Source: Patescibacteria group bacterium
Lineage (GTDB): Bacteria > Patescibacteriota > JABMPQ01 > JAQVVF01
Length of the DNA stretch: 64,000 nt
Reading direction: 5' to 3'
Assembly: GCA_041662665.1 (NCBI GenBank)
Contig: JBAZSC010000001.1
Location: 129,511-193,510, forward strand
The notes below the pieces were generated by a model. The model was not told the origin of the DNA, did no database searches, and was given only the letters and a program-made list of their open reading frames with translations. Positions 205 through 48,762 of this stretch are shown here, piece after piece. Both the position numbers and the translations under genes were made by a program. Position 1 is the stretch's first letter. Every line of letters starts with the position of its first letter.

Positions 205-969
205 TTATGAGTTGACAAAATTTATCAATTTATTATGTAATATTTTATTTGAACAAATCATTGTTTTCATATTTCGCGACCAATTTTTATTAGAAAAATC
301 AGTTACTTTTCCGCCGGCTTCTTCAATAATTAATGTTGATGCCGCATTCCCAAATGGATCTGTTTTGATTGAAATTTTTCCATCAAGTTTTCCGCAAGCA
401 ACATAGCAAGAAGTCAGAGCTCCGCTTTCAAAAGCTCTTAAGCCTCTAATTTTGGGAGCAATTTTTTTTATAATGTTGCAGTTATTATTAAATTGATTTT
501 TAGAATAATGCGCGCTAAATCCAATATTAATTAGCGATGAAGAAAGATTATTGTTTTTAGACACTTTTATTTTTTTGTTATTTAAATATGCTCCTTTATT
601 TTTTTGTGCAAAAAATAGTTCATTCAAACTCGGACAAAAAACTCCGCCAATTTCAATTTTATTTTTATAAATCAATGCAATTGAAACAGAATAGAGTGGA
701 ATTTTTGCTGCAAAGTTTATCGTTGCATCAAGTGGATCAATTATCCATAAATAATCATTTTTTAGTCCAACTGTCCCAATTTCTTCAGACAATATTTGAT
801 GTTTTGGAAAATTATCTTTAATAATTTTTATAATAATTTTTTCCGACAAAAAATCATTTTCAGTCACAATGTCATTCCTAGTTTTTAATTTGAAAGTTTG
901 ATTTTTTAAAAAATTTTCATTTAATTTTTTGCCAGCTGATTTTAAAGCCTTAAGTAATGTTTTTTTCAT
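205..969 (-). CDS. inositol monophosphatase family protein (IMPase/SuhB-like)
   Basis: 254 aa ORF. Motif WIIDPLDAT matches the IMPase metal-binding DPLDGT motif, within an Mg-dependent phosphatase-like sequence context. Confidence 0.65.
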   Translation of the reverse strand: MKKTLLKALKSAGKKLNENFLKNQTFKLKTRNDIVTENDFLSEKIIIKIIKDNFPKHQILSEEIGTVGLKNDYLWIIDPLDATINFAAKIPLYSVSIALIYKNKIEIGGVFCPSLNELFFAQKNKGAYLNNKKIKVSKNNNLSSSLINIGFSAHYSKNQFNNNCNIIKKIAPKIRGLRAFESGALTSCYVACGKLDGKISIKTDPFGNAASTLIIEEAGGKVTDFSNKNWSRNMKTMICSNKILHNKLINFVNS

Positions 970-1003
970 AACAATATTTTATTAGTAAAAAAAGCGATAA
1001 AAA

Positions 1004-2230
1004 TTATCGCTTTACCATTTTCGATGCCTCTTTTAATGCCATACCTAAAAGGTAAGGCCGAAAAGAAGAACGATCAGTACCGCTGACATCTCTACGTCGA
1101 TGAGCCCATTGCATTGCTCTTAAGAAAAACATCATTGAGAAAGCAGAAATAATTCGATGATCAATAGCAATTCCATTACTCCTTAAATAATCAAGCATAT
1201 ATTTTCTGCATTCTTTTACATAATCTCTCAATTCAAATCTCGTTTCAAAATCAATGATCAACTGTCCATTTTTAATCGTTGCATTAAATGATCCATCCCA
1301 TTTTGTTGGACTTGCCATAATTTCTGGAAACCAGTTCGTAAATTTTACGATTCCTTCTGGAAGCAACCGATAATCAACTTTTTCGTTGTCAATTGCATAA
1401 ATATTTTGTTCAGAAGTTACCAGAAAATTTCCAGCGCCTTCATCGCCATGCTGAAGACAAATCCAAGGATAGCTCAAAATATTTTCTTTCATAATCTCAA
1501 ACATTTCCTTTAAAGAAGGCAATTCCAAACCATTTAAAACTAAAGGCAGATCCAAAACTATTCCTAGTTTCATTTTTATAGCATTAATCATTATTGTTGC
1601 TTCTTGCAAAAGATTAAATGTGTCGTCTAGCTTTTCACCATAACCAGCAAATTTTCTAGAATCTTTCAATGCTTTTGTTGCGCACCACATTTTCAGATTC
1701 CGTTTCAAAACTTTCTTTGCAATTGTCCAAACTTTTGCTCTGCTGATAATCAATTCATGCAATGTCTTTGCATTTTCTACGAAAGCTGCTATATGCAGAT
1801 CAGGGTTTACAATTGGAAAAACAGTTGGTGTCAAAAGATGGGGCTTTAATAATTCTGATCCGATTCTCTCACGCCTGCCGACACCTGGTGCGAATTTTGC
1901 GATTGCTCTTCTAATTGCCCAACTATTGGTATCTAGTTCGATAGTACAAAGCAAAGCGCCACTGACACTGCCAGAAGAAAAATTTGAAATTCTTAACGGA
2001 TTCAAATGTTCTGCTCTTAAAACAGTTTCAATATTTCTTGTAACAGATGTAAACAAATCAGAAGAGACAAAGCAAGCACGTTCTTGTAACAATATTTCAA
2101 TTCTTTGCAAAACATCAAAAGTTTCTGCTGTTGGTTCACTTCCAGAAGCTTTGTCAATTGCTGACAGTAAATTCCTTAATGTTTCGTAAAGCGTTTGTAG
2201 AAGTACCAAGTCAACATTTTGCTGTTCCAT
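1004..2230 (-). CDS. kinase-fold phosphotransferase (APH/ChoK family; possibly an anomeric sugar kinase)
   Basis: ICLQHGDEGAGNFLV...IDNE matches the Brenner HxDxxxxN...D motif of the APH/choline-kinase fold. The internal Met (MEQQNVDL) at 2230 sits 5 nt after a GGGAGG SD, whereas the track ORF extends to 2257 without an SD. This gene is somewhat GC-richer than its neighbours. Confidence 0.5.
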   Translation of the reverse strand: MEQQNVDLVLLQTLYETLRNLLSAIDKASGSEPTAETFDVLQRIEILLQERACFVSSDLFTSVTRNIETVLRAEHLNPLRISNFSSGSVSGALLCTIELDTNSWAIRRAIAKFAPGVGRRERIGSELLKPHLLTPTVFPIVNPDLHIAAFVENAKTLHELIISRAKVWTIAKKVLKRNLKMWCATKALKDSRKFAGYGEKLDDTFNLLQEATIMINAIKMKLGIVLDLPLVLNGLELPSLKEMFEIMKENILSYPWICLQHGDEGAGNFLVTSEQNIYAIDNEKVDYRLLPEGIVKFTNWFPEIMASPTKWDGSFNATIKNGQLIIDFETRFELRDYVKECRKYMLDYLRSNGIAIDHRIISAFSMMFFLRAMQWAHRRRDVSGTDRSSFRPYLLGMALKEASKMVKR

Positions 2231-2485
2231 TTTTCCTCCCTCTTTTATTTGAGGCATACATTTTAAGGTACGATAATTTCATATAGTATCATACTTTTTA
2301 GCAACCTAATTATATTTTTTAAAAATTATTAAAGCAATGGTCAGGTTGTGGATAACTTTCTTTGTCCGCCATAGTCCAGCATTTTTCGCAAAAAGTGCTG
2401 GACGAAGGCGGATCAAAACAAAAAAGCCCAAATATTTAGGCTTAAGTAATTTTGTTATTTAGTTATTTTTAATTTAGTTATTTTT

Positions 2486-3322
2486 TTACGCCTGCCATTC
2501 TTTCAACACTCTTTCATAAATTTCAGGTGTAGAAATATCATACCATTCGCCATCAAAATGATAGCCGTACAGATTTCCTTCGCTTGCTAATTTTGGCAAA
2601 ACATCTTCTTCTAATTTTGAATATTCTTTTTTTGGAATTAATTTAATAATCTTTGGATCAATTACAAATATGCCAGCTGAAATTAATCTGGAAAGATTCG
2701 GTTTTTTTTCTGGCTTTTCCAAAAATCCTAATATTTTTGAACCTCTTAATTTCACAACTCCATAACCTTCTGGATTTGGGACAGATGTTAAAGCGATTGT
2801 TGCCAAGCCTCCTTCTTCTTTATGGAATGCCAGCATATCTTTCAAATCAACATTCGCTAAAGTATCGCCATATAACATCAAAAAAGATTCATCAGTCAAA
2901 TATTTTTTAGCTTTTAATAATGCTTTGGCAGTTCCAACTTTTTTCTTGCACATCACATAAGTAATGCTAACACCAAATTTTTTTCCATCGCCAAAATATT
3001 TTTTTATTTTTTCTGACATGTGCCCAACCAAAATAATAATATCTTTTATTTCATTATCTCTTAACTGTTCAATAATATGCTGTAAAATCGGTTTGCCTTT
3101 GACTGGCAACATTGATTTTGGCATTTCATAAGTGAATGGTCGCATCTTGACGCCTTGTCCAGCTGCCAGCAAATAAGCTTTTTTGACTCTTGATCGCAAA
3201 CTTTTCAAAACTAAATACTCGATCGCATGTGATCGATTTCTAATTTTTTCGCCATCAATAACTTTGTCAATTTGTGGCAAAATATCTTTTCGTAATGTTA
3301 TTGTTAATCTTGATCTTTCCAT
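2486..3322 (-). CDS. sugar-1-phosphate nucleotidyltransferase with an N-terminal ribbon-helix-helix (CopG-like) domain
   Basis: The N-terminus RLTITLRKDILPQIDKVIDG...RNRSHAIEYLVLKSL has an RHH beta-alpha-alpha pattern. It is followed by LLAAGQGVKMRPFTYEMPKSMLPV...GDG..FG, the signature of the NDP-sugar pyrophosphorylase (RmlA/MurU/GlmU N-domain) family. Confidence 0.65.
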   Translation of the reverse strand: MERSRLTITLRKDILPQIDKVIDGEKIRNRSHAIEYLVLKSLRSRVKKAYLLAAGQGVKMRPFTYEMPKSMLPVKGKPILQHIIEQLRDNEIKDIIILVGHMSEKIKKYFGDGKKFGVSITYVMCKKKVGTAKALLKAKKYLTDESFLMLYGDTLANVDLKDMLAFHKEEGGLATIALTSVPNPEGYGVVKLRGSKILGFLEKPEKKPNLSRLISAGIFVIDPKIIKLIPKKEYSKLEEDVLPKLASEGNLYGYHFDGEWYDISTPEIYERVLKEWQA

Positions 3323-3481
3323 GAATTTTTCATGAAGTTCATAATGTTATAAAGTTATAAAGTTCGTAAAGTCGGCAATGACTTTATAACTTTAAAAACT
3401 TTAAGAACTTTATAAACTTGTTTTATACTTTAAATTATACTATCATAAAGCTAGTTTTATTTCAACAGTAAAAATATAATT

Positions 3482-4492
3482 ATGCAAAACACAGTTGATA
3501 AATCAAATTTCAAAGACGTTGTAAAAAATTATCCAAAACAATTTGCCAAAGCTCTAGATTTTGCCAAGGATGTTAAAATCGAAGGTCAGTTTGAAAATGT
3601 CATTGTTTGTGGTTTGGGAGGATCTGCCTTGCCAGTTGATATGGTGATTTCATATTTAAAATCAAAAAATATTAATTTTCCGATTTCAGTTTGCCGAAAT
3701 TATACCTTGCCAGTAGAGGCCAATGAAAAAAGTTTGATCATTGCTTCATCTTTTTCAGGTTCAACTGAAGAAACAATTTCTTGTCTCAACGAAGCATTAG
3801 CAAAAAATTACAAAGTTGTTGGCATTGCTCGTGGTAAAGATATTTTAGAAATTTGTCAGTCAAAAAATATTCCATATATTCAATATCCAGATGATGGCCC
3901 AACATTCCAGCCTCGTTGTGCATCAGGCTATATTTTTACATCAATTGTAACGATTTTATCTAAAATAAAAGTTTTAGAAAATATTGAAAATGATTTAACA
4001 AATTTAGGTAAATTTTTAGAATCAATAAATATAGAACAAGAAAAAGCTGGTCAAGAATTAGCGCCTAAATTAAAAAATAATATTCCATTAATTTATACAA
4101 CAGAATTTTATCGCGATTCTATAGCTCGCATTTTTAAAATCAAATTAAATGAAAATGCAAAGACGCAAAGTTTTTTCAATTATTTTCCAGAATTGAATCA
4201 TAATGAAATGGTTGGTTTTACAAATTTAGTTGGCAAATATTTTATCATAATTCTGCAAGATCCAAATGATCATGACCGAAACAAAAAAAGAATGAATATT
4301 TTTAAAAATCTTTTAGAACAAAAAGGAATTAGTGTTGAAATTATCTTGATGAAAGGAAATTCTGTTTTAGAAAAAATATTTGCATCTTCACTTTTGGCAG
4401 ATTGGACTTCATATTATTTAGCTTTAGCTTATAATCAAGATCCAACGCCAGTAAATATGGTTGAAGAATTTAAAGAATTGATGAAAAAATAG
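3482..4492 (+). CDS. bifunctional phosphoglucose/phosphomannose isomerase-like SIS-domain protein
   Basis: 336 aa. VIVCGLGGSALP is a SIS-domain glycine-rich loop. Size and layout resemble archaeal-type PGI/PMI. Confidence 0.5.
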   Translation: MQNTVDKSNFKDVVKNYPKQFAKALDFAKDVKIEGQFENVIVCGLGGSALPVDMVISYLKSKNINFPISVCRNYTLPVEANEKSLIIASSFSGSTEETISCLNEALAKNYKVVGIARGKDILEICQSKNIPYIQYPDDGPTFQPRCASGYIFTSIVTILSKIKVLENIENDLTNLGKFLESINIEQEKAGQELAPKLKNNIPLIYTTEFYRDSIARIFKIKLNENAKTQSFFNYFPELNHNEMVGFTNLVGKYFIIILQDPNDHDRNKKRMNIFKNLLEQKGISVEIILMKGNSVLEKIFASSLLADWTSYYLALAYNQDPTPVNMVEEFKELMKK

Positions 4493-4732: not shown

Positions 4733-4921
4733 ATGGCCGATCAAAACAAAGAAAAGCAATTATCCGGATTTGAACAATTTGTTTTTGATCCCAAATCAAC
4801 TTTAAGCGCAACAGATCAAATGCTTGCCTGGCTAAAAAGACATGAAGAAGAAATTGCAGCAGCAGATAGAGAATCTGAAGCAGAATTTAGAAAAGCGCAA
4901 CCAATTTTTGATAAGTTCTGA
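4733..4921 (+). CDS. small hypothetical acidic protein (62 aa), second gene of cassette A
   Basis: ATG preceded by AAGGAGGA. Ends just before a hairpin + T-run terminator. Confidence 0.5.
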   Translation: MADQNKEKQLSGFEQFVFDPKSTLSATDQMLAWLKRHEEEIAAADRESEAEFRKAQPIFDKF

Positions 4922-4936
4922 TTCAGTCGAACTTTT

Positions 4937-4960
4937 TAGAGCTTAATTGCTCTTTTTTAT
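4937..4960 (+). terminator. rho-independent terminator AGAGC-ttaatt-GCTCT + T-run (cassette A)
   Basis: Stem-loop followed by TTTTTT. One of three near-identical copies (5388-5411 and 5870-5895 are the others). Confidence 0.55.
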
Positions 4961-4975
4961 ATTCAAAAATTAATA

Positions 4976-5004
4976 TTGACACATCGTTTAGATTTTGTTT
5001 TAAT
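4976..5004 (+). promoter_or_regulatory. sigma70-like promoter (cassette B): TTGACA - 17 nt - TTTAAT
   Basis: Consensus -35, 17-nt spacer, -10 TTTAAT, then the leader AGTACCTTGAGAGGAGG. Confidence 0.6.
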
Positions 5005-5032
5005 CTATACAGTACCTTGAGAGGAGGAAGCA

Positions 5033-5389
5033 GTGGATCAGACAATCAAGCAAATGCTCGAAAAGAAACTTCAACAAGCGCAAGAATCATCTGATTCAGT
5101 TCAAATTGCAATTGTTGAAAAAACTTTAGCAGCCTTAAGTCAAGAAATTTTATCAATTGTCATTCCAGAAGATTTACCATCTGGTCGTCATGGACTTATG
5201 AGCGAAAATAAACTGAGAACTGTTGTCAAGCTGGTTAGATTAATGCTAAGAAGTCATAATGATTCGGAATGGCAATTTTTCCTTGATTTCGTAAATAAAG
5301 TCAATCAATTGCAAACTGCATTTGATGTTGATTTAGACGAGCAAGAAAAGATTTTGGATCAAATCACTGGTAGAAATTGTACAGTTTAG
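5033..5389 (+). CDS. small hypothetical helical protein (118 aa, GTG start), cassette B
   Basis: GTG start 6-7 nt after a GAGGAGG SD. The stop codon overlaps a terminator hairpin. Confidence 0.5.
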   Translation: MDQTIKQMLEKKLQQAQESSDSVQIAIVEKTLAALSQEILSIVIPEDLPSGRHGLMSENKLRTVVKLVRLMLRSHNDSEWQFFLDFVNKVNQLQTAFDVDLDEQEKILDQITGRNCTV

Positions 5390-5411
5390 AGCAATTTATG
5401 CTCTTTTTTTA
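5388..5411 (+). terminator. rho-independent terminator AGAGCAatttaTGCTCT + T7 (cassette B)
   Basis: Near-identical to the terminators at 4937 and 5870. Confidence 0.6.
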
Positions 5412-5427
5412 TCCTCAAAAATTATTG

Positions 5428-5456
5428 TTGACAGTCAATTCAAAATTTGTTTTAAT
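5428..5456 (+). promoter_or_regulatory. sigma70-like promoter (cassette C): TTGACA - 17 nt - TTTAAT
   Basis: Third copy of the same promoter module, followed by the leader AGTACCTTGGGAGGAGAGGAGGG. Confidence 0.6.
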
Positions 5457-5488
5457 TTAACAGTACCTTGGGAGGAGAGGAGGGAAAG

Positions 5489-5851
5489 GTGACTGTTAGG
5501 GAAATGATCGAAGCTAGAATCAGAGAAGCAGAAAGATTGGAAATTGTACAAGAACAAATTGATTTCTTAAGAACAGTTGAAAACAAGCTTTCAGAAATTG
5601 ATCCAAACATTCTAAGCATTAGTATGCCAGATAGATCGATACCTCCAAGTTGGTTTAGCGAAGTTGAAAGGAATGTCTTGATCGATCTTGTCGAACTATT
5701 CATAAAAGCAAAAACAGTAACTGAGCGAGCAACTTTTCTTGATATGATTAGAAGAGTTCATACCGAAAAAGGAAATAGGAAATTTGATTTTAGCGTTTCT
5801 GATTATCATGCAGTTAGTCGCGCAATTTGCCCTCTACAATCTAGCACTTGA
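5489..5851 (+). CDS. small hypothetical helical protein (about 120 aa, probable GTG start), cassette C
   Basis: The track ORF starts at TTG 5468 inside the SD-like GGAGGAGAGGAGGG run, so GTG 5489 (MTVREMIEAR...) is the more plausible start. Shares a loose pattern with the cassette B protein. Confidence 0.45.
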   Translation: MTVREMIEARIREAERLEIVQEQIDFLRTVENKLSEIDPNILSISMPDRSIPPSWFSEVERNVLIDLVELFIKAKTVTERATFLDMIRRVHTEKGNRKFDFSVSDYHAVSRAICPLQSST

Positions 5852-14458: not shown

Positions 14459-17400
14459 ATGCCTCAAACGCAAAAAACTGAAGTAAAAACAAGAAGTCGA
14501 ACCAGTCAAATTACTGGTGTCGTTGCAGCTGTTGTTGCAGCAATTGGTATCGGCGCCCTTATCTATTTTGCCGTTGTCAACTACAACACAAAAATAACAA
14601 CACAAACAGAATTTTCTGTTTTTGAACAAGAGTATCAGCCAAATGTTGAGCCAGTTTCTGCAATTGTAACTGATCAAAATCAACTCGCTGATGCACAAAC
14701 AAAATTGGATGCAATTAAAGGTGTTGTTACTCCTGTAATTGAACAACAAGCTCAAGATACCGGCACAACTCCTGGACAGATAATTGATGTTACCCAAAAA
14801 GATGCAATGATTGAATCTCTTTCTGACCAAGTTGTTTCCGAAACCGCAACAGAAATTAAAGATGAAGTTAACATTTTAATCGGCAAAGACGAGCTCGATT
14901 TTTCTCAAGCACAGGCTGCTGAAGATTATACGATGATAAAAGTATTTGGTGATCTGACTAACGCAACAGGCGGTACAGATACAACTAGTTCAGGTGTAAC
15001 CTTAACAGATGCTCAAAAGAATACACTTGATACAATTGCTGAAAATACTTCAACTGATACAACTCAAAAAATTACGGAAGGTTCTACAAAAATTGCTCGA
15101 GAAACTAGTGGCAATGAAAGTGAAATCAATAGCGAACTTACTGCTGAAGTTATCAGTATTTTTGGACAGGCAACTGATTTCACGCTTACTGGAACAAAAG
15201 ATGAATTTGCTGCAGCAGAAGCTCCAGCACCAAACGAAGTAACTCCAGATATCTGGTTTTGTAATTCTGAAAATAATTGTCAGCAATCAGAATATGCTAC
15301 TTTAGATAAATGTAAACTAGAAAAAGGCATAGACAAATGTTTTGAAGGCAACACTTGCGGTGATTGCAAACAAGCAGCTCCAGTAGATGAAAGAGTCCAT
15401 ACTTGCTCTCCTGATAATATTTGTATGCCATCAACTTTGTATCCTACTTTAGCGGATTGTGTGACAGCTATAGGTGCTGACAAATGTTTTGAAGGCAATA
15501 CTTGTGTTTGTCAAGCTACACCAGCAAATGAACCAGCTGCCAGTCAATTTCAATTATATTTTTGTTTAAATGGAAATTGGACATCTGATAGTTTTGGAGG
15601 TAACTCTATAGATGAAGCAAAACAAGTTTGTAGTACTGCCATAGGCAACCAATGCTTTATTGATTCAAGTGATCCAGGTCATGATGCCGCAAAAGAAGCT
15701 TGCAAGCCAGCAGTTGATGAGCCAGTAATCGATGAATCAGCATTTTGTGTTGATAATGCCTGTGTACCTGGCCCAATTAATGTAAAGTGTACTCCTCCAA
15801 ATTGCCCTGAACGTTTTGATAATATGGAAGCATGCAATCTTTCAGATTGCGAGCCAAAGCAAGAATATGTATACTGTGCAGAAACTGGTTGTTTAGCTGA
15901 AAGTTTTAGCAGTCAAGGCGAATGTGAAGCACAGCATATCGGCGCTAATTGCAAATTATCAACACCTGAATCTATACAAGAGTGTAGTGATGCTTGCATC
16001 AAGATGGAGCAAGATCAACAATATTACACTTGCGATAGAGACGTAAATCAATGCAAGGCAGTTCAAAATCTTGATGAATGTGAAGTTAATGGCGGTACCA
16101 AATATTGCACAACGAATAATGATTGTTGCAAAGCAAATGTAATTCCAGTTCAAAAACAATATTACTATTGCGATAAAAATGATAAAACTAATGGTTGTAA
16201 ACAAACAGAACTACTTGACTCCTTAGAAGCCTGTCAAAATGCGCATCCAGATGGTGGCTGTATAGCTGATGTTAAAAAAGCTATTTGCGATGAAACATGC
16301 AAGCCCGATCCAGTTTTAGATGTAATTGAAGACGAATGTCATAATAATTTGCCAAATGATCCTAAATGCTCATTGCAAGTAATTGACAAAATAGAAAATA
16401 AACCAACAGGTGAAATTACAGAATACAAATTATCAGTCACATCTTCAATTATTTATCGAGGTTTAGGCAGAGTTATTATGAAATTCTGGGCCAATCCAAA
16501 CGATCCAGTTAACTTTGAATATACAAAGCAAAAATTAGCTAATGATTTTAAAGACAATAAATTAAGAGTCAGATTTGGCGATAAAAAAGAAGATTTGTCT
16601 GATGTCCTAAAAGTTTACAAAGATCCAAGAAATCCAAACAAATATTATGCTATTGCTTATAAATTAAATATTGATAATCTTTGGCAAAATGATGATGGAA
16701 AATATAATAGCAAAAAATATTTTTATCAAGTCAATGCCGACAATAAAAAATCAGATTTCTTTGATTTCCAATCTTTGCAAAGAGGCGGAGAAGTTCTTTA
16801 TGTCAAAAACAGATTATATAATGGACATTATGATTTAAAAAAATATGGAACTATTGAATTAAATCTAAAAAATAGTGGACAACTTGCCGGCAATATAAAA
16901 ACCTTGAACAACAAATTGAAAAATTTCGAAAATGGCGGTGTTAATTTCTGGACGCAAACTTCAAAAGTTTCTCCTTATGGCTTGAGAACTGCAATGGCTG
17001 GAGATCAAAGATTCAAACAATATTTTAGCATTTTGAAAAATCTGCAAAAGAAAAATGATATTACAAAAGCTGTTCAAGTTCTTTACAATTATCATGATCG
17101 TCTAAAACCTGAAGATATTTATCGTCGTTATGATCAAGGCGGTGTTAATTATTGGGTTAAGCAAGTTAACAATGATAAATTGTCGTTCAGCAGTATGGTT
17201 ACTTATGTCATGCTAGGTACAGATGAGCCAAAAACAAATCTTACACAATTCTGGGGCACAGGAAAATTAGCTACTAGAAAAGCAGAAATCGAATTAGGCT
17301 TTGTTAAATCTTTAAGCCGAGGCATTACTCAAATGTCAGATATTGATCGATTCATGAATTCTTCCAAATATATTTCTTCTGCAAGCATTAGAGCAGATTT

Positions 17401-17653
17401 AAGAAATTCAGATGAATTCAGAAGATTGTTGAATGATGTTTATAAACGTGGTGAAGCATCTGACGCCATATCATTGTTATATATTGCTGATTTAGGAAGA
17501 CCAGTTGATCCAGATGGCCAGCCATTCTATGTCAACAAATTTAATCAACTTAGAAAAGATGGTCTAAACGCTACAGATGCTTTGAATGAAATTGATAAAG
17601 AATTAACGAGTAGTAAAGAATACAAAGATGCAATTGCAAGACCAATAAAGTAA
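14459..17653 (+). CDS. giant membrane-anchored Cys-rich secreted protein with a C-terminal DUF4214-like domain
   Basis: 1064 aa. N-terminal TM. Repeated Cys-rich modules (CFEGNTCGDCKQA / CFEGNTCVCQATPA and others). The C-terminal LLYIADLGRPVDPDGQPFYVNKFNQLRKDGLNATDALNEIDKELTSSKEYKDAI fits the DUF4214 consensus (LY..LGR..D..G..YW..L..G......F..S.EY). Paralogous to the next gene. Confidence 0.6.
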   Translation: MPQTQKTEVKTRSRTSQITGVVAAVVAAIGIGALIYFAVVNYNTKITTQTEFSVFEQEYQPNVEPVSAIVTDQNQLADAQTKLDAIKGVVTPVIEQQAQDTGTTPGQIIDVTQKDAMIESLSDQVVSETATEIKDEVNILIGKDELDFSQAQAAEDYTMIKVFGDLTNATGGTDTTSSGVTLTDAQKNTLDTIAENTSTDTTQKITEGSTKIARETSGNESEINSELTAEVISIFGQATDFTLTGTKDEFAAAEAPAPNEVTPDIWFCNSENNCQQSEYATLDKCKLEKGIDKCFEGNTCGDCKQAAPVDERVHTCSPDNICMPSTLYPTLADCVTAIGADKCFEGNTCVCQATPANEPAASQFQLYFCLNGNWTSDSFGGNSIDEAKQVCSTAIGNQCFIDSSDPGHDAAKEACKPAVDEPVIDESAFCVDNACVPGPINVKCTPPNCPERFDNMEACNLSDCEPKQEYVYCAETGCLAESFSSQGECEAQHIGANCKLSTPESIQECSDACIKMEQDQQYYTCDRDVNQCKAVQNLDECEVNGGTKYCTTNNDCCKANVIPVQKQYYYCDKNDKTNGCKQTELLDSLEACQNAHPDGGCIADVKKAICDETCKPDPVLDVIEDECHNNLPNDPKCSLQVIDKIENKPTGEITEYKLSVTSSIIYRGLGRVIMKFWANPNDPVNFEYTKQKLANDFKDNKLRVRFGDKKEDLSDVLKVYKDPRNPNKYYAIAYKLNIDNLWQNDDGKYNSKKYFYQVNADNKKSDFFDFQSLQRGGEVLYVKNRLYNGHYDLKKYGTIELNLKNSGQLAGNIKTLNNKLKNFENGGVNFWTQTSKVSPYGLRTAMAGDQRFKQYFSILKNLQKKNDITKAVQVLYNYHDRLKPEDIYRRYDQGGVNYWVKQVNNDKLSFSSMVTYVMLGTDEPKTNLTQFWGTGKLATRKAEIELGFVKSLSRGITQMSDIDRFMNSSKYISSASIRADLRNSDEFRRLLNDVYKRGEASDAISLLYIADLGRPVDPDGQPFYVNKFNQLRKDGLNATDALNEIDKELTSSKEYKDAIARPIK

Positions 17654-17663
17654 ATTATAAAAA

Positions 17664-17690
17664 AGGCGAGATCGAAAAAGATCTCGCCTT
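17664..17690. terminator. hairpin AAGGCGAGATC-gaaaaa-GATCTCGCCTT between the two paralogs
   Basis: Perfect 11-bp stem. Weak T tract. Confidence 0.45.
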
Positions 17691-17704
17691 AATATTCCAA
17701 TTAT

Positions 17705-20700
17705 ATGGAGGCAAAAAACAAATTTTATAGATTAATTGGGATTATAATTATTTTTTTAAGCATTGGAGCAATCGCTTATCTTTCATTTTCTAATTATTTT
17801 GGAAAAACTAAAATTAATAATTTTGGTGAAGATTATCCAGTTGATGAAATAAAAGATGCCAATGAAGAAAAACTCGAAGAACTAGTAGTATCTGCCCAAA
17901 AAACATTAGACCAGCAGATTAAAAATCAAGCGCCAGATACTTCAAAATCAGATCAAGAGATGATCCGAGAGCAAATTATCAATAAAATTTATAGTGAGAA
18001 TGTTAATGCTGAAGTTTTAGCACAAGAAAAAAATATTGCTCAATCCATATCTAATCAGTCAATTGCTCAGCTTAATAGCGAGATTGCTAGTGGAGGAAAC
18101 GATAATAATCAAAATTTAAATAGTAAAATTTTAGATTTAGCTGACAAGCTTTTTATTAAACAAAAAGCTAAAAAAACAGCTCAAGAAACTGTTAACGAGA
18201 TCAATGATGAAGTTACATCAGCAATTAATAATAGCAATTTAGATAGTCGTAAGCAAAGCAGCAGTGCAGTTAATATTATGCATGCAATAATTTTTGATGA
18301 TCCAAACCTTGCTTTTTCAAATGCCAGCAATAGCAAAGAAAAAAGAGCTTTGCAAGATATCTACAAAAATGCTTTGAATGATTCAAATAATAAAATTGAT
18401 AATAATCTATTAACTTTGAATAACCAGAATAACAAAGATGAATTTAATTATCAATTTAAAGAAAGCTTGAAACAAGTAGTTACAGTCGTCAAGCAAGATA
18501 CAAAAGTTAGGATGTCCAGTGCGCTTAGTGATAATGCTAAAAAAACAATTGCTGATCAAGTAGTTGCTGATTCCAATCCGAATAATTCTGCTGATCAAAT
18601 AATTGATTGCGCAAACAATGCAAATATTGAACAATGTTTAACAAAAGGCAATCAAAAACCAATTGCCGAACAAGTTAAACAAGTAGAACAAGTGACCCAA
18701 ACCATCAATAATACTTATGATAATCTTGATAATGAAAACGGTAAGATAATGAATCAAGAAGATAAACAAGAAATTATTGATACAACAATCAAAAAAACAA
18801 AAGAAGAAATAAAAAATCAACCGCTTGTTGAATATATTTGTACTTGCAAAGCGCCAGAAAATGTTTGCCAGTCAACTGGAAAAAATTATACTGACAAAGA
18901 TCAATGCGCAAATGAACAAGGAGGAGAATGTTTCGAGAGCTTAGATGCCTGTTATGGTTATTGCAAGCAACCAGCAACAGTAGAAGAAGAAACTGTTGCT
19001 ACTTGCACAAAACTAATCATATGTCACATTCCATCAGACAATCCAGAAAATCAGCAAGAGATTTGTGTTGCAGAATCAGCAGCCAAAGCGCATTATGCTC
19101 ATGGTGATTATGAAGGCTATTGTAAGACAGCCCCAACTAACGAGCCAGTCAATGAAAATACGAATACATCAAATGAAACTAATGAAAATATTAATACCAA
19201 CACAAATGAAATAGCTAATGAAAATGCAAATCAGCCTTTGAATGAGAATACGAATATTAATGAATCAACAAATCAAGTAGCTAATGAAAATACGAATATC
19301 AACATTAACACAAATCAAAACGTTAATGTCAACGAAAATACAAACGTTGTTACTAATGCAAACCAGAATACTAATCAATCGACAGGAGGAGGAATAGATG
19401 TTCCTAATGTCCCTCCGACAGACAATCCAGACCCAAATCAAAAACCACCTCTTGATATCCAGCCAGTAGAAAATGGAAATTTTTTTGCTTATTGTGATCG
19501 TGAAGTTGGACAATGCAGGACAGCAGAAAATATGTTTAAGGATGAAAATTCTTGTCTTTCTTCATTACAAAGTCAATTTCCTAACAAAAATATTACTGCC
19601 TGCATTCCTTTCGATTCAACCACACAATCTTATCCATGTTTAGAAAGTTGTACTAAAACAACTCCAGAAAATCAACAAATAAATGATTTAGAGAAAAGCT
19701 TGCATGATTATGTTGTCGAAAATCCAGTTTTTCTAAAAGAAGAAATTAATAAAATAAAAGAAGACATCACTGAAAAGACAATCAGAGTCTTTAATGAAAA
19801 GGTAAAACCTACCCCAATAGATCAGCAAAAACAAGATCAGATAGTCAACGATCTTAAAAATGAAATAAACCAACAAATTCAAGCCTTGCCAGAAAATGCA
19901 AGACCAAGCTACGAAGAAGTAATTGACAAATTAGCTCATAATGAATCTGATGAAATTTCACTTAAGGCTTGGATAGTTTACAAGGGGTTAGGTAGAGTAA
20001 TCTTGAAATTTGAAGAAAATGAATTTGATGTTTATAAAAAACTATATAGTGAGAATGTAATCAAATCAGCTTTTGACGCCGGAAATCTAAAATTTAAATT
20101 TGGTGAAAAAGCAGATGATCTAAAGTATGACTTCAAAATTTATAAGGACCAGAAAAGCGATCGTTTTTATGCTGTTGTCTATAATTTAGGTGAGGATAAT
20201 TTGGTGAATAAAGATAATGATCAATATGGTTCAAAAGAATATTATTTTCAAGTTGCTACAGATGAAAAGTTTTCTGAAATTTTCACTTTTAAATCTTTAA
20301 ATAGGGTTGGCGAGGCTTTGTATGATCAAAATAAATTATTTGGACAGAACCATGATTTAAAACGCTACGGCACTATTGCTTATGATTTCAACAAAGGCAG
20401 TCAAGAAAATAATTATATTAAAAAATCTGGCTTATCGTCCTACATTGATTCAAATGCAAGTCCTTATGGTCTAAAAACTGCCATGGCCAAAAGCCCAAAT
20501 TTCATAAACGCGTTAAAAAAAATCAATAACATTGATTCAATCAAAAAAGTCTATACAGGGTATGTTGATCTATTAATTCCTCAAGATATTTATTACCAAT
20601 ATAGCGAACCAACTGTAAAATATTGGGCAAACACTATTGCAAAAAAAGATCTCAATTTTAATTCTGTGGTACAAAATTTATTTTTCACTACCAAAGAGCA

Positions 20701-21112
20701 AGATTTAAATTTAATTGATTTTTGGAATAAACCGCAATATGCAACGATTGAGGACAGCTATCTAAAAACATTGAGGCGTGGTATCATATCAAATGATGAA
20801 ATTAATCAATTCCTAAATCAAGCAGAATATTCTTCTAAAGCATTAATCAGAGAAAAATTAAGATCTCAAGAAGAATATAGTCTTATTAAAAAACAGATTA
20901 TTAAACAAAAAGACAGTTCAATCTTAGCTTTTATTTTCTCCGCAGTTCTCGGCCGAGAAATTACTCCAAGAGAAAATAGCCATTATCTTGCCCAATATCA
21001 AAAGCTCGAAAAAGAAAAAGGCATGAATAAAGAAAAAGCTGCTGATAGAATAGAATCTGAATTAATTAATAGTTCTGAATATAAAAAAGAATTACAACAA
21101 ACAATAAAATAA
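17705..21112 (+). CDS. giant membrane-anchored Cys-rich secreted protein with an Asn-rich low-complexity tract and a C-terminal DUF4214-like domain (paralog)
   Basis: 1135 aa. N-terminal TM. Cys-rich centre. A NENTNT...NQNVNVNENTN low-complexity tract at about 19140-19390. The C-terminal region is homologous to the previous gene (YKGLGRVILKF.../YRGLGRVIMKF...) and ends in a DUF4214-like segment AVLGREITPRENSHYLAQYQKLEKEKGMNKEKAADRIESELINSSEYKKEL. Confidence 0.6.
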   Translation: MEAKNKFYRLIGIIIIFLSIGAIAYLSFSNYFGKTKINNFGEDYPVDEIKDANEEKLEELVVSAQKTLDQQIKNQAPDTSKSDQEMIREQIINKIYSENVNAEVLAQEKNIAQSISNQSIAQLNSEIASGGNDNNQNLNSKILDLADKLFIKQKAKKTAQETVNEINDEVTSAINNSNLDSRKQSSSAVNIMHAIIFDDPNLAFSNASNSKEKRALQDIYKNALNDSNNKIDNNLLTLNNQNNKDEFNYQFKESLKQVVTVVKQDTKVRMSSALSDNAKKTIADQVVADSNPNNSADQIIDCANNANIEQCLTKGNQKPIAEQVKQVEQVTQTINNTYDNLDNENGKIMNQEDKQEIIDTTIKKTKEEIKNQPLVEYICTCKAPENVCQSTGKNYTDKDQCANEQGGECFESLDACYGYCKQPATVEEETVATCTKLIICHIPSDNPENQQEICVAESAAKAHYAHGDYEGYCKTAPTNEPVNENTNTSNETNENINTNTNEIANENANQPLNENTNINESTNQVANENTNININTNQNVNVNENTNVVTNANQNTNQSTGGGIDVPNVPPTDNPDPNQKPPLDIQPVENGNFFAYCDREVGQCRTAENMFKDENSCLSSLQSQFPNKNITACIPFDSTTQSYPCLESCTKTTPENQQINDLEKSLHDYVVENPVFLKEEINKIKEDITEKTIRVFNEKVKPTPIDQQKQDQIVNDLKNEINQQIQALPENARPSYEEVIDKLAHNESDEISLKAWIVYKGLGRVILKFEENEFDVYKKLYSENVIKSAFDAGNLKFKFGEKADDLKYDFKIYKDQKSDRFYAVVYNLGEDNLVNKDNDQYGSKEYYFQVATDEKFSEIFTFKSLNRVGEALYDQNKLFGQNHDLKRYGTIAYDFNKGSQENNYIKKSGLSSYIDSNASPYGLKTAMAKSPNFINALKKINNIDSIKKVYTGYVDLLIPQDIYYQYSEPTVKYWANTIAKKDLNFNSVVQNLFFTTKEQDLNLIDFWNKPQYATIEDSYLKTLRRGIISNDEINQFLNQAEYSSKALIREKLRSQEEYSLIKKQIIKQKDSSILAFIFSAVLGREITPRENSHYLAQYQKLEKEKGMNKEKAADRIESELINSSEYKKELQQTIK

Positions 21113-28281: not shown

Positions 28282-29043
28282 ATGTTCAGCAGCATTTCTG
28301 CATATTTTTCCACATTTACATTAATAGATTATATTACAACAATTTTAGACATTGGAATTGTTGCTGTTTTGATTTACTTTGCTTTCGCATTTGTCAAAGG
28401 TACTAAAGCTACAAGAATAATTTATGGCATAATAATTTTAAGTGTTGTTGTAGTTATTGGCAGATTACTAAATTTGCAAACTTTGAATTGGGTCTTGTCG
28501 CATTTAACATTATTAATTTTAGTCGCTATACCAGTTGTCTTTCAGCCAGAATTAAGAAGAGCTCTAGAGAGATTAGGCCGTGCCAATATTTTTGGCAAAA
28601 CAAAAAAAGAGTCAACAAAAATCAACGATATTATTGAAGCAATTGAAATTTTAAAGAAAAACAGAATTGGCGCATTAATAGTAATTCAAAGAAAAACTGG
28701 CTTATTAGAATATGTTGAATCAGGAACAGAGCTAAATGCTAATTTATCAATTGCATTATTGCTAAATATTTTCTTTCCAAATTCTCCATTGCATGACGGT
28801 GCAGTCATAATTTTAGGCAACAAGATTCTAGCTGCTGGCTGTATGTTGCCACTTACAGAAGGCGAATATTCAATGACCTACGGCACTCGCCACAAAGCAG
28901 CAATTGGCGTTACCGAAAATACAGATGCCATTGCCTTAGTTGTTTCTGAAGAAAGAGGCGAGGTCTCGATTGCCATTGACGGACATTTGGAGGAAAAAGT
29001 TGGAACGGAAAAATTAGCGAATAAGCTTGAACAGCTTGTTTAG
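28282..29043 (+). CDS. cdaA: diadenylate cyclase CdaA (c-di-AMP synthase)
   Basis: N-terminal TM helices. DAC-domain motifs HDGAVIILGNKI and GTRHKAAIGVTE (cf. DGA / RHRAA). Confidence 0.85.
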   Translation: MFSSISAYFSTFTLIDYITTILDIGIVAVLIYFAFAFVKGTKATRIIYGIIILSVVVVIGRLLNLQTLNWVLSHLTLLILVAIPVVFQPELRRALERLGRANIFGKTKKESTKINDIIEAIEILKKNRIGALIVIQRKTGLLEYVESGTELNANLSIALLLNIFFPNSPLHDGAVIILGNKILAAGCMLPLTEGEYSMTYGTRHKAAIGVTENTDAIALVVSEERGEVSIAIDGHLEEKVGTEKLANKLEQLV

Positions 29044-29157
29044 AATTTTCAATTACCAATTTCCAATTTTCAAATAATATTCAATGGACAATTTTCATTG
29101 GAAATTGATCATTGGTAATTGATTGTAAATTGATAATTGGAAATTGAAAATTATTTT

Positions 29158-30357
29158 ATGTCTAACAACTTTTATCTCAAAATTTTGGCCATAATCTCTG
29201 CAATTTGTTTGTGGTTTTTTGTCATTAACGAAGGCTTTAGAGTTGATAATTTAGATACTGAATTGACAATTAAAGCACAGAATCTTTCTGAAGATTTGAT
29301 AATTACTAATAATTTGCCAAACGTTAAAGTAAAATTGCGCGCTCCAAATGACGTCTGGCAAAAAAAAGATATTGCCACCAAAATAGATGCCTCAATTAAT
29401 TTGCAATATTATAGCCAAGGTGAATATGATATTGAAGTAAAAGTAGAAGCTTTAGACAAGAATATTCAAATCATAGAACAAGAGCCAAAATCAGTTCACG
29501 TAATTTTATCGCCAATTATTTCAATTGAAAAACAAGTTGAATTAGAAACATCTGGAAATTTGGGCAAAGATTATCAAGCATCCAAACCAAAATTTTCACA
29601 AAGCGAAGTTAATGTTGAAAGCGCTCAAGTCATTTTAGATAAAATTGTTAAAGTTGTTGCGCCAATAAAATATAATGGCGAAATGTCAGAAATTAAAAAG
29701 ACTGTAGAATTAGAAGCCAGAGATAAAGATAATAAAAAAATTGATAAAGTAAATATTCTGCCAAAAACAGTTGAAGTTATTATTCCTGTTAATAAAGAAA
29801 ATGGCGAAAAAACAGTTGGTGTTAAAGCAAATATTATTGGCAATTTGCCTGCTGGCGCTACGATTGAAAAAATAGAAACCAATCCGTCAACTGTTACGAT
29901 CAAAGGCAAGAATGAAAAGATTAAGGATATTGACACAGTCGAAACGGAAATCATAGATTTAAGTGAAATGACAGAAGATGTTAATGAAAAAAAAGTTAAT
30001 TTAAATTTGCCAGATGGAATTGAAATCTTAGGCAATCCGCAAATTACAGTCAAAATTTATTTAAACCAGCAAACAATTTCCAAACAATTTTCAGGCATTA
30101 TAAAATACAAAAATCTTAACGATCAATTTAAAGTTGGTGGTATTATGCCAAGTCGCATCCAATTGACAATTGAAGGCCCATCTGCTAAAATCAATAGCTT
30201 AAATGAGGATGATGTTTTTATAGAAATTGATTTAGCAAATAAAACAGAAGGAACTCCAGAATTTAGTATTTCGCCTGAAAGCATTTCAGTCCCATCAGGC
30301 ATCACTGTTAAGAGCGTTGAAACAAGATCAATCAAAGTTATTATTGTCAAGAAATAA
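29158..30357 (+). CDS. cdaR: YbbR-like domain protein CdaR (regulator of CdaA)
   Basis: Immediately downstream of cdaA. N-terminal TM (LKILAIISAICLWFFV) and repeated YbbR-like beta-rich segments. The track start 29137 lies in an intergenic palindrome, so Met 29158 is preferred. Confidence 0.65.
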   Translation: MSNNFYLKILAIISAICLWFFVINEGFRVDNLDTELTIKAQNLSEDLIITNNLPNVKVKLRAPNDVWQKKDIATKIDASINLQYYSQGEYDIEVKVEALDKNIQIIEQEPKSVHVILSPIISIEKQVELETSGNLGKDYQASKPKFSQSEVNVESAQVILDKIVKVVAPIKYNGEMSEIKKTVELEARDKDNKKIDKVNILPKTVEVIIPVNKENGEKTVGVKANIIGNLPAGATIEKIETNPSTVTIKGKNEKIKDIDTVETEIIDLSEMTEDVNEKKVNLNLPDGIEILGNPQITVKIYLNQQTISKQFSGIIKYKNLNDQFKVGGIMPSRIQLTIEGPSAKINSLNEDDVFIEIDLANKTEGTPEFSISPESISVPSGITVKSVETRSIKVIIVKK

Positions 30358-30398
30358 CTTTATAAACTTTATAACTTTAAGAACTTTATAACTCGTTT

Positions 30399-30971
30399 AT
30401 GTTAATTCCCACAGTCATCGAAAAATCAAATTATGGCGAACGTGCTTATGATATTTATTCCAGACTATTAAAAGATAGAATCGTTTTTTTAGGCGGAGAA
30501 ATTGATGATAATTTAGCTAATACAGTTATTGCTCAATTATTATTTCTTGAATCCGAAGACAAAACAAAAGATATTAAATTATACATTAATTCAAATGGCG
30601 GATCAGTTAGCGCTGGACTAGCAATCTATGATACAATGCAATATATCAAGCCAGATGTGTCAACAATTTGTGTTGGCTTGGCTGCATCAATGGGAGCAAC
30701 TCTTCTTTTAGCTGGTGCTAAAAATAAAAGAATGGCTTTGCCAAATGCTGAAATAATGTTGCATCAAATTATGGGTGGAGTACAAGGCCAGGCATCTGAT
30801 ATTGAAATTACAGCCAAACAAATTTTAAAGCTAAAAGAAAGATTAAATAAAATTATTGCTAAACATACCAATCAGAAATTAACTCAAATTGAACAAGATA
30901 CAGATCGTGATTATTATATGACTTCTGATGAAGCTAAAAAATATGGAATCGTTGATCAAATTATAAAATAA
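30399..30971 (+). CDS. clpP: ATP-dependent Clp protease proteolytic subunit
   Basis: [24 protein letters not shown]...[38 protein letters not shown], with Ser/His catalytic context. Confidence 0.9.
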
Positions 30972-45395: not shown

Positions 45396-45413
45396 AAGTA
45401 TTATCAATAAGAC

Positions 45414-48278: not shown

Positions 48279-48762
48279 AAAAATCCCAAATCCCAAATTC
48301 CAAACAAATTACAAATCACAAAAAACAAAATTGCCCGAACAAAATAAAACTAACAAATTATATAATCTCGAAGACCGAACTTTAGAATTTAGTAAAAGAG
48401 TTGCCAATATGTGCAACGCTTTGCCTAAAAATTATATTAATATTGTTTATATAAATCAGATTTTAAGATCAGGGAGTTCGATAGGTGCTAATTACATAGA
48501 AGCAAATGAATCATTAGGAAAAAAAGATTTTAAAATGAAAGTAAGAATTGCTAGAAAAGAAGCAAAAGAAACAACTTATTGGCTGAATTTAATAATAGAT
48601 GCTAATCCAGAATTTAGAAAAAGAATTGAACCATTATTACAAGAATCAATCGAAATAAGAAATATTTTATCAACAATAATAAACAAATCTAATTAATTTT
48701 TTTTGTAATTTGTATTTTGTATATTGTAATTTGTTTGGAATTTGGGATTTGTAATTTATAAT
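48279..48762 (+). mobile_element. IVS-like element: four-helix-bundle gene carried inside a 'caaatcccaaat'-family inverted repeat, inserted at the junction of the split VirB4 gene
   Basis: Left arm aaaatcccaaatcccaaattccaaacaaattacaaatcacaa (about 48279-48330). Right arm ttgtaatttgtattttgtatattgtaatttgtttggaatttgggatttgtaattt (about 48700-48762). Both flank CDS 48331..48696. Confidence 0.45.
48331..48696 (+). CDS. four-helix-bundle protein (23S rRNA IVS-type family), second copy
   Basis: LEFSKRVANMCNALPKNYINIVYINQILRSGSSIGANYIEANESLGKKDFKMKVRIARKEAKETTYWLNLI. Shares the family pattern with the 27846 gene. Non-ATG (TTG) start per the track. Confidence 0.55.
   Translation: MPEQNKTNKLYNLEDRTLEFSKRVANMCNALPKNYINIVYINQILRSGSSIGANYIEANESLGKKDFKMKVRIARKEAKETTYWLNLIIDANPEFRKRIEPLLQESIEIRNILSTIINKSN

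Follow-up and report, generated by a model that had tools for sequence, protein, structure and literature searches.

Does a group of four adjacent genes in a member of the Patescibacteria with a tiny genome, encoding an inositol monophosphatase (IMPase)-like protein, a kinase, a sugar-1-phosphate nucleotidyltransferase and a sugar phosphate isomerase, constitute a route by which a sugar is activated to a nucleoside diphosphate (NDP)-sugar, and if so, for which sugar? The locus lies in a stretch of 64,000 nucleotides (contig JBAZSC010000001.1, positions 129,511 to 193,510), here named the window, which is part of a 645-kb contig of a Patescibacteria (candidate phyla radiation, CPR) metagenome-assembled genome and which has a GC content of ~31%. 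The original prediction, made from the letters of this DNA, had read the locus as a salvage route of the AmgK/MurU type for activated cell-wall sugars, in which a kinase of the APH fold and a nucleotidyltransferase are flanked by a phosphatase and an isomerase. The genes in question are:

205 to 969, minus strand: IMPase-family protein, 254 aa (NCBI MFA6295856.1, PF00459).
1004 to 2257, minus strand: kinA, an unannotated, predicted small-molecule kinase of the protein-kinase-like (PKL) fold, 417 aa (NCBI MFA6295857.1, hypothetical protein WC663_00735).
2486 to 3322, minus strand: sugar-1-phosphate nucleotidyltransferase fused to a ribbon-helix-helix (RHH) domain, 278 aa (NCBI MFA6295858.1, PF00483).
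3482 to 4492, plus strand: bifunctional phosphoglucose/phosphomannose isomerase (PGI/PMI, double SIS), divergently oriented, 336 aa (NCBI MFA6295859.1, TIGR02128 and PF10432).

The explanation favored here, to which a probability of about 0.36 is assigned, is that these genes represent a Patescibacteria-specific sugar-activation module in which kinase and phosphatase would jointly supply hexose-1-phosphate to the transferase. It is tentatively preferred because the kinase retains an intact fold and catalytic set, has a phosphatase as its constant neighbor and is preceded by the transferase in four out of six lineages; because the slot following the transferase is occupied in another Patescibacterium by a kinase resembling RfaE domain I, the transferase is nearest to UDP-glucose and GDP-mannose enzymes and a PGI/PMI gene is adjacent; and because the succession of phosphatase, anomeric kinase and nucleotidyltransferase is an established logic in the MupP/AmgK/MurU pathway (PMC5371407).

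All four genes are present in the open reading frame (ORF) list of the window at the coordinates originally given, and the IMPase-like, transferase and PGI/PMI proteins match their respective families strongly. A relative whose kinase is 79% identical (L001) was used as the reference for intergenic conservation and for the ratio of nonsynonymous to synonymous substitution rates (dN/dS), the latter amounting to 0.097 for kinA, 0.104 for the IMPase gene, 0.024 for the transferase gene and 0.098 for the PGI/PMI gene. All four are thus under purifying selection, and considering these ratios together with the family and fold matches, neither the genes nor their assigned folds are chance findings. 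For kinA, the start at position 2230 adopted in the original prediction corresponds to the second ATG, is preceded at 4-5 nt by the Shine-Dalgarno sequence GAGGGAGGA, and is probably the correct one.

A regularity is found in the gene neighborhoods. A phosphatase gene adjoins the kinA-family kinase in every context for which enough flanking sequence is available, and an IMPase-like gene is located beside the kinase in six lineages in which the kinases are 28-79% identical, namely the window itself and the following five:

L001, kinase 79% identical: gene arrangement as in the window.
L012/13, kinase 36% identical: transferase, kinase, IMPase.
L007, kinase 35% identical: kinase, IMPase.
L009, kinase 28% identical: transferase, kinase, with the IMPase gene convergent.
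L016, kinase 32% identical: kinase, with the IMPase gene convergent and no transferase gene.

The RHH-transferase gene is situated directly upstream of the kinase gene in four of these six lineages, so that the pairing of a kinase with a sugar-1-phosphate-type nucleotidyltransferase, on which the original prediction was built, recurs where the kinases are only 28-36% identical. In a distant clade, the kinase gene is followed by genes for a Cof-type HAD phosphatase, an HAD_2 protein and a winged-helix protein; in Ca. Levyibacteriota (L006) each of these proteins has a gene of its own, and kinase and Cof-HAD are fused into a single protein of 718 aa in another locus (P0033/L017). The linkage of kinase and phosphatase is the invariant feature of the neighborhoods of the kinA family. 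The phosphatase, which had been proposed as a flanking gene, is accordingly an integral partner, yet a conserved membership of the other flanking gene, that for PGI/PMI, is not borne out, as among the loci compared it is located beside the transferase gene only in the window and in L001.

No match of kinA was retrieved from Pfam at E<=10, nor from NCBIfam or PADLOC at E<=0.01, and an index of 5.8 billion proteins contained a single close homolog. When 1.84 billion representative sequences were searched exhaustively with HMMER, a family of 38 clusters was delineated; a search with the pattern HGDEG[AW]GN returned one reference genome (Ca. Levyibacteriota) and three metagenome loci, and a profile search of a word-indexed protein database returned no further relatives. 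The catalytic set VxK, E, HGDxxxxN and IDxG is kept across the family. In the 38-sequence alignment H270-G-D272, N277 and D290 are invariant, K121 and E130 are near-invariant, a Gly-rich loop (GGVSGA or GSVSGA) is present, and W191, Y206, K209, E301, K305, W309, R380 and R388 are also conserved. The family profile matches APH(3')-Ia (E 1e-4, aligned at HGD...N...ID) and, more weakly, Bud32, spectinomycin phosphotransferase, RIO2 and ABC1; the Pfam APH model (PF01636), to whose family AmgK and NahK belong, gives weak matches in 10 of the 38 relatives (best E 9.9e-5) and none in kinA itself. Structure prediction by AlphaFold yielded a predicted local distance difference test score (pLDDT) of 39 when based on a two-sequence alignment, and a usable model required the 38-sequence alignment (AF2, pLDDT 88.6, predicted TM-score (pTM) 0.83). 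When this model was used in a Foldseek search, the choline kinase LicA was retrieved first (E 4e-8, TM-score normalized to the target 0.69-0.73), followed by choline/ethanolamine kinases, MtnK (methylthioribose kinase), APH(3')-Ia and PsiK, with a Foldseek probability of 1.0 against LicA, ChoK, MtnK and APH(3').

The hallmarks of the PKL superfamily were thus found in kinA, being the catalytic set in its sequence (Gly-rich loop, beta3 Lys, alphaC Glu, HxDxxxxN catalytic loop and a Mg-binding Asp equivalent to that of DFG) and a bilobal fold with a helical substrate lobe in its model, and kinA is accordingly read as an ATP-dependent small-molecule kinase of the PKL (APH/choline-kinase-type) fold. 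The original assignment to an APH fold was correct in view of the conserved catalytic motifs and the LicA, MtnK and APH(3') fold matches. Membership of the AmgK, NahK or APH families was not corroborated, as kinA is matched neither by Pfam APH nor by any NCBIfam model and as NahK and AmgK fall outside the Foldseek top 50. The fold itself gives no substrate identity. The N-terminus of kinA (residues 1-85) is extended by helices specific to this lineage, and this part is also constrained (dN/dS 0.137). Acquisition of kinA by horizontal transfer was considered and rejected, its GC content being only one standard deviation above the window mean.

These matches are also what could be expected if the genes were unrelated neighbors and kinA were an antibiotic (aminoglycoside or macrolide) phosphotransferase, a protein kinase or a kinase of a conflict system, since its best sequence-profile match is APH(3')-Ia and since some members of its family show weak matches of the TCAD9, ABC1, RIO or Bud32 type; the patchy distribution of the family, the presence of a promoter of its own and the flanking terminators (see below) would fit as well. 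Against this, the same phosphatase subfamily is linked to the kinase across 28-79% identity and in both orientations, a fusion of the kinase with an HAD phosphatase exists, kinA is under strong purifying selection, and PADLOC gives no match and so no support for a defense system. Mere adjacency is therefore regarded as the least probable of the explanations weighed here.

The transferase matches PF00483 with E 1.5e-44 (152.8 bits), its NTP_transferase domain covering residues 48-271. The motifs AAGQGVKMRPFT, YGD, EKP and WYD are present, of which GD, EKP and WxD are kept family-wide, and the family-wide motif GxG-(I/V)KMRPFT has a Lys where the canonical Arg is located. With the family profile, the highest score was obtained for a UDP-glucose pyrophosphorylase (8x7s, 188 bits), followed by GDP-mannose pyrophosphorylases (GMPPB and plant mannose-1-phosphate guanylyltransferase 1, ~158-160 bits), RmlA-type enzymes (124 bits) and MurU (8hhd, 106 bits), the transferase being below every NCBIfam equivalog cut-off (for MurU, NF045761, 133.4 versus 250 bits). 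The order of these scores speaks against the MurNAc/GlcNAc (MurU-type) specificity that had been suggested. The best guess for the substrate, based on these profiles, is a hexose-1-phosphate (glucose or mannose), with MurNAc-1-phosphate or phosphocholine appearing less likely. The pathway originally envisaged can thus be retained in its fold and in its kinase-transferase logic, not in its AmgK/MurU identity or its specificity for cell-wall sugars, and the phosphatase is more central to it than had been proposed.

Considering that the top fold match of kinA is the pneumococcal choline kinase LicA and that LicC shares the fold of the transferase, a route of the LicA/LicC or polyol type was also evaluated, in which an alcohol such as choline, ethanolamine or inositol would be phosphorylated by the kinase, the product would be converted by the transferase to a CDP-alcohol for decoration of the envelope, and the IMPase would act on an inositol phosphate. 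The co-occurrence of an IMPase and a cytidylyltransferase in di-myo-inositol-phosphate operons is in agreement with such a route. However, in a search with the single transferase sequence LicC aligns only with the N-terminal 77 residues at 48 bits, as compared to 147-188 bits over the whole domain for hexose-1-phosphate enzymes, and the transferase retains the sugar-phosphate motifs EKP and WxD; moreover, the kinA family has no choline-kinase motif after the IDxG segment, and no genes for a CDP-alcohol transferase, MIPS, LicB or LicD were seen nearby. An alcohol as the substrate is thus very doubtful. A di-myo-inositol-phosphate operon as such was rejected, as there is no MIPS/DIPPS gene nearby and no inositol-phosphate cytidylyltransferase was noticed among the matches of the transferase in the PDB at E<1e-10.

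The N-terminal 47 residues of the transferase (window positions 3182-3322, minus strand) constitute an RHH domain resembling that of NikR and CopG. A profile of residues 1-50 matched only NikR (E 0.003 and 0.14) and CopG in the PDB, and the segment carries the RHH signature xRhTITL...NRSxAIxxhh, consisting of a beta-strand and two helices; no Pfam match was obtained for it with the whole protein at E<=0.05. The fused architecture is present in all 25 aligned orthologs, in which the N-terminal segment is almost invariant, and is kept in hundreds of orthologs from Patescibacteria; no literature report was found of an RHH domain fused to a sugar-1-phosphate nucleotidyltransferase. Homologs number 1712 at E<1e-20, more than 100 of which are full-length at >53% identity, and those that are named are nearly all from Patescibacteria, Kerfeldbacteria or Berkelbacteria. 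The transferase is 97% identical in amino acid sequence to its L001 ortholog, as compared to 79-85% for the neighboring proteins. On the basis of its domain composition, the protein may be a trigger enzyme or repressor. In three orthologs (P0043, P0045 and P0051, from L018 and L021) the NTP-binding motif is degenerate (ATRG-xxMK versus AGGxG-IKMRP), and these proteins may no longer be catalytically active, a regulatory role being all that would be left to them.

The phosphatase partner is atypical. It matches PF00459 with E 2.7e-54 (184.9 bits), its SEE (62-63) and DPLDAT (78-83) motifs are present, and EE and DPLD(A/G)T are kept in orthologs. The segment PWDxAAG is replaced by TDPFGNAAS (residues ~203-212, PFG taking the place of PWD), which is then followed by EEAGG, and all six kinase-linked IMPase orthologs have T(D/N)P(F/Y)(G/S)xAA instead of PWDxAAG. 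According to work attributed to York et al. in 1995, the IMPase family reportedly has a WD-x11-GG motif, the Asp of which ligates the second metal. Among solved structures, the nearest are those of the T. maritima IMPase (2p3n), of SuhB and of 2pcr (labelled FBPase/IMPase). Every NCBIfam equivalog cut-off is missed, including those for the bifunctional fructose bisphosphatase (FBPase)/IMPase (NF009321, 153 versus 264 bits) and for SuhB (NF008027, 147 versus 332 bits).

The strict pairing and the one fusion of kinase and phosphatase fit opposing activities as well as sequential ones, and the two enzymes could therefore control, by acting against each other, how much of a single phosphorylated compound is present, be it a metabolite or an effector such as a hexose bisphosphate. 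Such an arrangement has precedents in PFK-2/FBPase-2 and the archaeal fusion of NAD kinase with an NADP phosphatase of the IMPase type; the IMPase-like protein scores 104 bits on the model for the bifunctional NADP phosphatase/NAD kinase, which is a precedent for an IMPase-kinase fusion catalyzing opposite reactions, and the site of the locus among PFK/FBPase-type genes would be appropriate. Linkage to a nucleotidyltransferase in four lineages and the replacement of the kinase by an HldE-like enzyme (see below) favor a biosynthetic flow instead, and no bacterial regulatory bisphosphate system of such a kind is known. Antagonism between the two enzymes is, on balance, rather improbable.

Transferase orthologs that are not accompanied by kinA were informative with respect to the kinase slot. 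In L018 and L021 (70-72% identity), the next gene encodes the GlpX FBPase and is followed by genes for fructose bisphosphate aldolase (FBA) and GAPDH, and in L019 and L020 (55-57%) the next gene encodes a PfkB-family kinase, with PFK nearby. On the RfaE-domain-I model, the PfkB kinase of L019 reaches 282 bits in a full-length match, as compared to 98 bits on the ribokinase model. RfaE domain I (D-glycero-beta-D-manno-heptose-7-phosphate kinase) phosphorylates a sugar phosphate at its anomeric position. The occurrence of two unrelated kinase folds in the slot after the same transferase suggests, from gene order, non-orthologous displacement between kinA-type and PfkB kinases, and one of these folds is of a type that forms a sugar-1,x-bisphosphate, which is subsequently dephosphorylated and nucleotidylated.

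To the left of the window edge and on the same strand as the IMPase gene are located genes for PFK, for kinB and for an HAD protein of the beta-PGM family (L004:2491-5382). kinB encodes a second, paralogous PKL kinase of 348 aa (hhalign probability 99.1%) and begins 5 nt after the PFK gene; the HAD protein that follows scores 194 bits on TIGR02009 (beta-PGM family), which is above the cut-off. With GC contents of 0.42 (PFK gene) and 0.40 (kinB), as compared to 0.32 +/- 0.03, the two are compositionally foreign, which suggests that they were laterally acquired as a pair. The hexokinase that CPR bacteria lack has a candidate in kinB.

This neighborhood is equally compatible with a role in upper glycolysis, and the main and serious rival to the sugar-activation module is that kinA and/or kinB act as a hexokinase substitute by phosphorylating a free hexose at C6, thereby feeding PGI/PMI and PFK and closing a gap in upper glycolysis that is typical of CPR bacteria, in which case the IMPase would be an FBPase and the transferase a mere neighbor or regulator. 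Genes for PGI/PMI, PFK and an FBPase-like protein surround the kinases, kinB directly follows the PFK gene, and transferase orthologs adjoin GlpX, FBA, GAPDH and PFK genes. Hexokinase/glucokinase and PFK were found to be missing from nearly all CPR bacteria by Jaffe et al. (2020, PMC7304191), who left room for divergent substitutes. A lateral gain of upper-glycolysis kinases has been reported for the CPR, to which the compositionally foreign PFK and kinB genes would correspond. What a hexokinase substitute leaves unexplained is the constant pairing or fusion of kinase and phosphatase, which is also seen at loci lacking glycolytic genes (L016, L006 and L017), and the equivalent of the kinase in the L019 slot is an HldE-like anomeric kinase. 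Most sugar kinases of the PKL fold (NahK, AmgK, MtnK, maltokinase) likewise act at the anomeric carbon, which counts against phosphorylation at C6. With these points taken together, a hexokinase substitute is held to be unlikely, if less so than the other alternatives.

For the preferred sugar-activation module we infer the following scheme, from the sugar used and the carbon phosphorylated to the sequence of reactions and their control. Kinase and phosphatase together would relocate a hexose phosphate group from the C6 to the C1 position. If the phosphatase acted first, as MupP does before AmgK, hexose-6-phosphate would be converted to hexose and then to hexose-1-phosphate; if the kinase acted first, as HldE/HddA does before GmhB, hexose-6-phosphate would be converted to hexose-1,6-bisphosphate and then to hexose-1-phosphate. 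An alternative entry would be the direct salvage of a free sugar. The transferase would next convert hexose-1-phosphate to NDP-hexose, and its RHH domain would probably allow it to repress its own promoter. The neighboring PGI/PMI protein (TIGR02128 232.6 bits versus a cut-off of 213.9; PF10432 E 1.6e-43) could supply glucose-6-phosphate or mannose-6-phosphate from fructose-6-phosphate, and the net effect would be a bypass of a phosphomutase or a salvage entry.

In a stronger form of this proposal, kinase and IMPase lacking the WD motif would replace phosphoglucomutase/phosphomannomutase (PGM/PMM), mannose-6-phosphate or glucose-6-phosphate being converted to the 1,6-bisphosphate, from which the IMPase would remove the 6-phosphate, so that hexoses would be processed by the logic of the NDP-heptose pathway with unrelated folds; the pyrophosphorylase would be an RHH trigger-enzyme repressor that senses the sugar-nucleotide pool, and kinB and the beta-PGM-family HAD protein might replace hexokinase. 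This version is regarded as improbable. Phosphohexomutase motifs ([ST][AG]SH[NL]P, DGD[GAC]DR and GE[EQMS]SG, the last being the sugar-binding loop) were not found in any frame of the window and its flanks, which represent ~10% of the 645-kb contig, and a scan for GHMP and glucokinase motifs in the same ~10% of the genome returned nothing.

Several points weigh against the sugar-activation module. That the substrate of kinA would be a sugar is a proposal drawn from its partners, the fold of kinA is matched best by a choline kinase, and none of its fold matches lies outside the range of 12-15% identity. The IMPase-like protein lacks the metal-ligand Asp of the WD motif, which renders its phosphatase activity uncertain. 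Transferase homologs are numerous (1712 hits) and widespread and the kinase family is rare (38 clusters), so that most transferases work without a kinA-type kinase. In the closest kinase-less relatives the transferase gene is followed by GlpX, FBA and GAPDH genes, and the IMPase may be just the local FBPase in a neighborhood that may be gluconeogenic and not a dedicated pathway. A conserved terminator separates the transferase and kinase genes, which consequently do not form one operon. Finally, the absence of PGM/PMM applies to the 64-kb window plus flanks, or ~10% of the genome.

The transcription signals and repeats of the intergenic regions are as follows:

991 to 1013, minus strand: weak hairpin and T-run over the kinA stop codon.
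2309 to 2337, minus strand: candidate kinA promoter (TTGCTT, 17-nt spacer, TATAAT), read from the sequence and kept in L001.
2361 to 2413, no strand assigned: 53-nt GC-rich palindromic hairpin, an insertion that is missing from L001.
2424 to 2443, minus strand: intrinsic-terminator-like hairpin and T-run directly 3' of the transferase gene, with a counterpart in L001.
3339 to 3419, no strand assigned: array of 8-9-nt repeats and inverted repeats in the divergent PGI/transferase intergenic region.

The kinA stop codon and the ATG of the IMPase gene are 34 nt apart, with the weak hairpin in between, and kinA and the IMPase gene are therefore probably co-transcribed. In the candidate kinA promoter, three of the six positions of the -35 hexamer match and the TATAAT box is conserved in L001. 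The terminator, the TATAAT box and the 34-nt gap together point to two transcription units, one for the transferase and one for kinase and IMPase. The 53-nt hairpin between the transferase terminator and the kinA promoter has a perfect stem, represents a clean insertion relative to L001 and is contained in a 241-nt region that folds with z = -5.6; it is probably a small palindromic mobile or repetitive extragenic palindromic (REP)-like element that does not belong to the module. A conserved riboswitch was ruled out at this position, as the insertion has no counterpart in the relative. Rfam at its gathering threshold gave no match anywhere in the window.

Between the -10 box and the ATG of the transferase gene, the array at 3339-3419 consists of four copies of TTATAAAGT followed by five inverted copies of ACTTTAWAA, and an analogous AAGTT/AACT array is found in L001. 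It is a candidate RHH operator or a 5' untranslated region (5'-UTR) hairpin; no AAGTT repeat array is present upstream of more distant transferase orthologs, and given this confinement to the window and its close relative the idea of an operator stays unproven. A near-identical array, with 4-5 copies of AACTTTATA, is located immediately upstream of clpP (30355-30392), so that the two arrays are either candidate operators through which the RHH domain would control a wider regulon or a generic element of promoters or 5'-UTRs. The region 28282-30971 encodes cdaA (DAC domain), cdaR/YbbR and then clpP. In many Firmicutes, the cdaA-cdaR operon is completed by glmM.

Some further features of the window were recorded. 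A GalT-family (HIT) enzyme is encoded at 35830-36897 on the plus strand, its best solved relative being Arabidopsis At5g18200 (1z84, E 9e-57), which was reportedly characterized as an ADP-glucose phosphorylase; it is the second enzyme of the window that makes or uses hexose-1-phosphate. Three small tandem ORFs of 62, 118 and 127 aa without family matches are located at 4733-5851 (plus strand), each followed by a near-identical terminator (AGAGC...GCTCT and a T-run) and with a GC content slightly above the window mean; by eye, those of 118 and 127 aa look like paralogs. Large ORFs (1064, 1135, 748 and 473 aa) without a Pfam match at E<=1e-6 are present at 14459-21112 and 43149-46835 (both plus strand). 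Nearby genes specify a TraG-like P-loop ATPase (48742-50313) as well as a protein with T4SS-pilin, SLT and GDSL domains (55124-57031), and the area may serve type IV secretion or a process similar to conjugation.

CPR bacteria or Patescibacteria account for a large share of bacterial diversity, and many enzymes of upper sugar metabolism are "missing" from them. The present locus offers three clonable candidates, namely a kinase family that profiles do not recognize, its obligate phosphatase partner with an altered metal site and a widespread RHH-fused pyrophosphorylase. If a mutase bypass or a hexokinase substitute were true, metabolic reconstructions would need revision with respect to cell-wall and glycan precursors and to host-derived free sugars, and a new enzyme family would be added to the sugar kinases available for the chemo-enzymatic synthesis of sugar nucleotides. 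The RHH-pyrophosphorylase would represent a new type of enzyme-regulator.

Among known systems, the recycling of MurNAc in Pseudomonas by MupP, AmgK and MurU, in which a phosphatase removes the 6-phosphate, an APH-fold kinase acts at the anomeric position and a PF00483 transferase follows, thereby bypassing a de novo step (PMC5371407), has the same three-part logic as kinA, IMPase and transferase. It differs in that kinA has no detectable APH/AmgK membership, that the phosphatase is of the IMPase fold here and of the HAD type in MupP, and that the transferase is nearer to glucose- and mannose-1-phosphate enzymes and carries an RHH domain, and a link to MurNAc is unsupported; no literature report of AmgK/MurU in Patescibacteria was found. 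The NDP-heptose pathway, comprising GmhA (an SIS isomerase), HldE/HddA (anomeric sugar-phosphate kinase), GmhB (phosphatase) and HddC/HldC (nucleotidyltransferase), combines the same four activities that the original prediction had pointed out. HddC is a PF00483 enzyme, and it is a kinase similar to RfaE domain I that follows the orthologous transferase in L019. The proteins of the window are nevertheless from other families (double-SIS PGI/PMI, PKL kinase, IMPase fold), the HddC model scores the transferase at 95 bits versus a cut-off of 300, and a hexose rather than a heptose would be handled, the bisphosphate intermediate being hypothetical.

LicA is the best structural match of kinA, and the combination of a PKL kinase with a PF00483-like transferase follows the logic of lic1; the choline-kinase motif is absent here, no LicB or LicD gene was seen nearby, and lic1 has no phosphatase partner. 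The bifidobacterial utilization of lacto-N-biose/galacto-N-biose (LNB/GNB), in which the APH-fold kinase NahK phosphorylates a hexosamine at the anomeric position and thereby supplies hexose-1-phosphate to a GalT-type uridylyltransferase, is comparable insofar as the window encodes a GalT-family enzyme, yet kinA shows no detectable NahK membership and the GalT homolog is 32 kb away. As for enzyme-regulators with an N-terminal RHH domain, such as NikR and the trigger enzyme PutA, the N-terminus of the transferase matches the NikR/CopG RHH domain and the promoter region of its gene contains an array of repeats, DNA binding by this domain being a prediction. The module may thus be described as a divergent kinase family, an IMPase devoid of the WD motif and an RHH-fused pyrophosphorylase, which appear to be arranged in the manner of known phosphatase/kinase/nucleotidyltransferase pathways.

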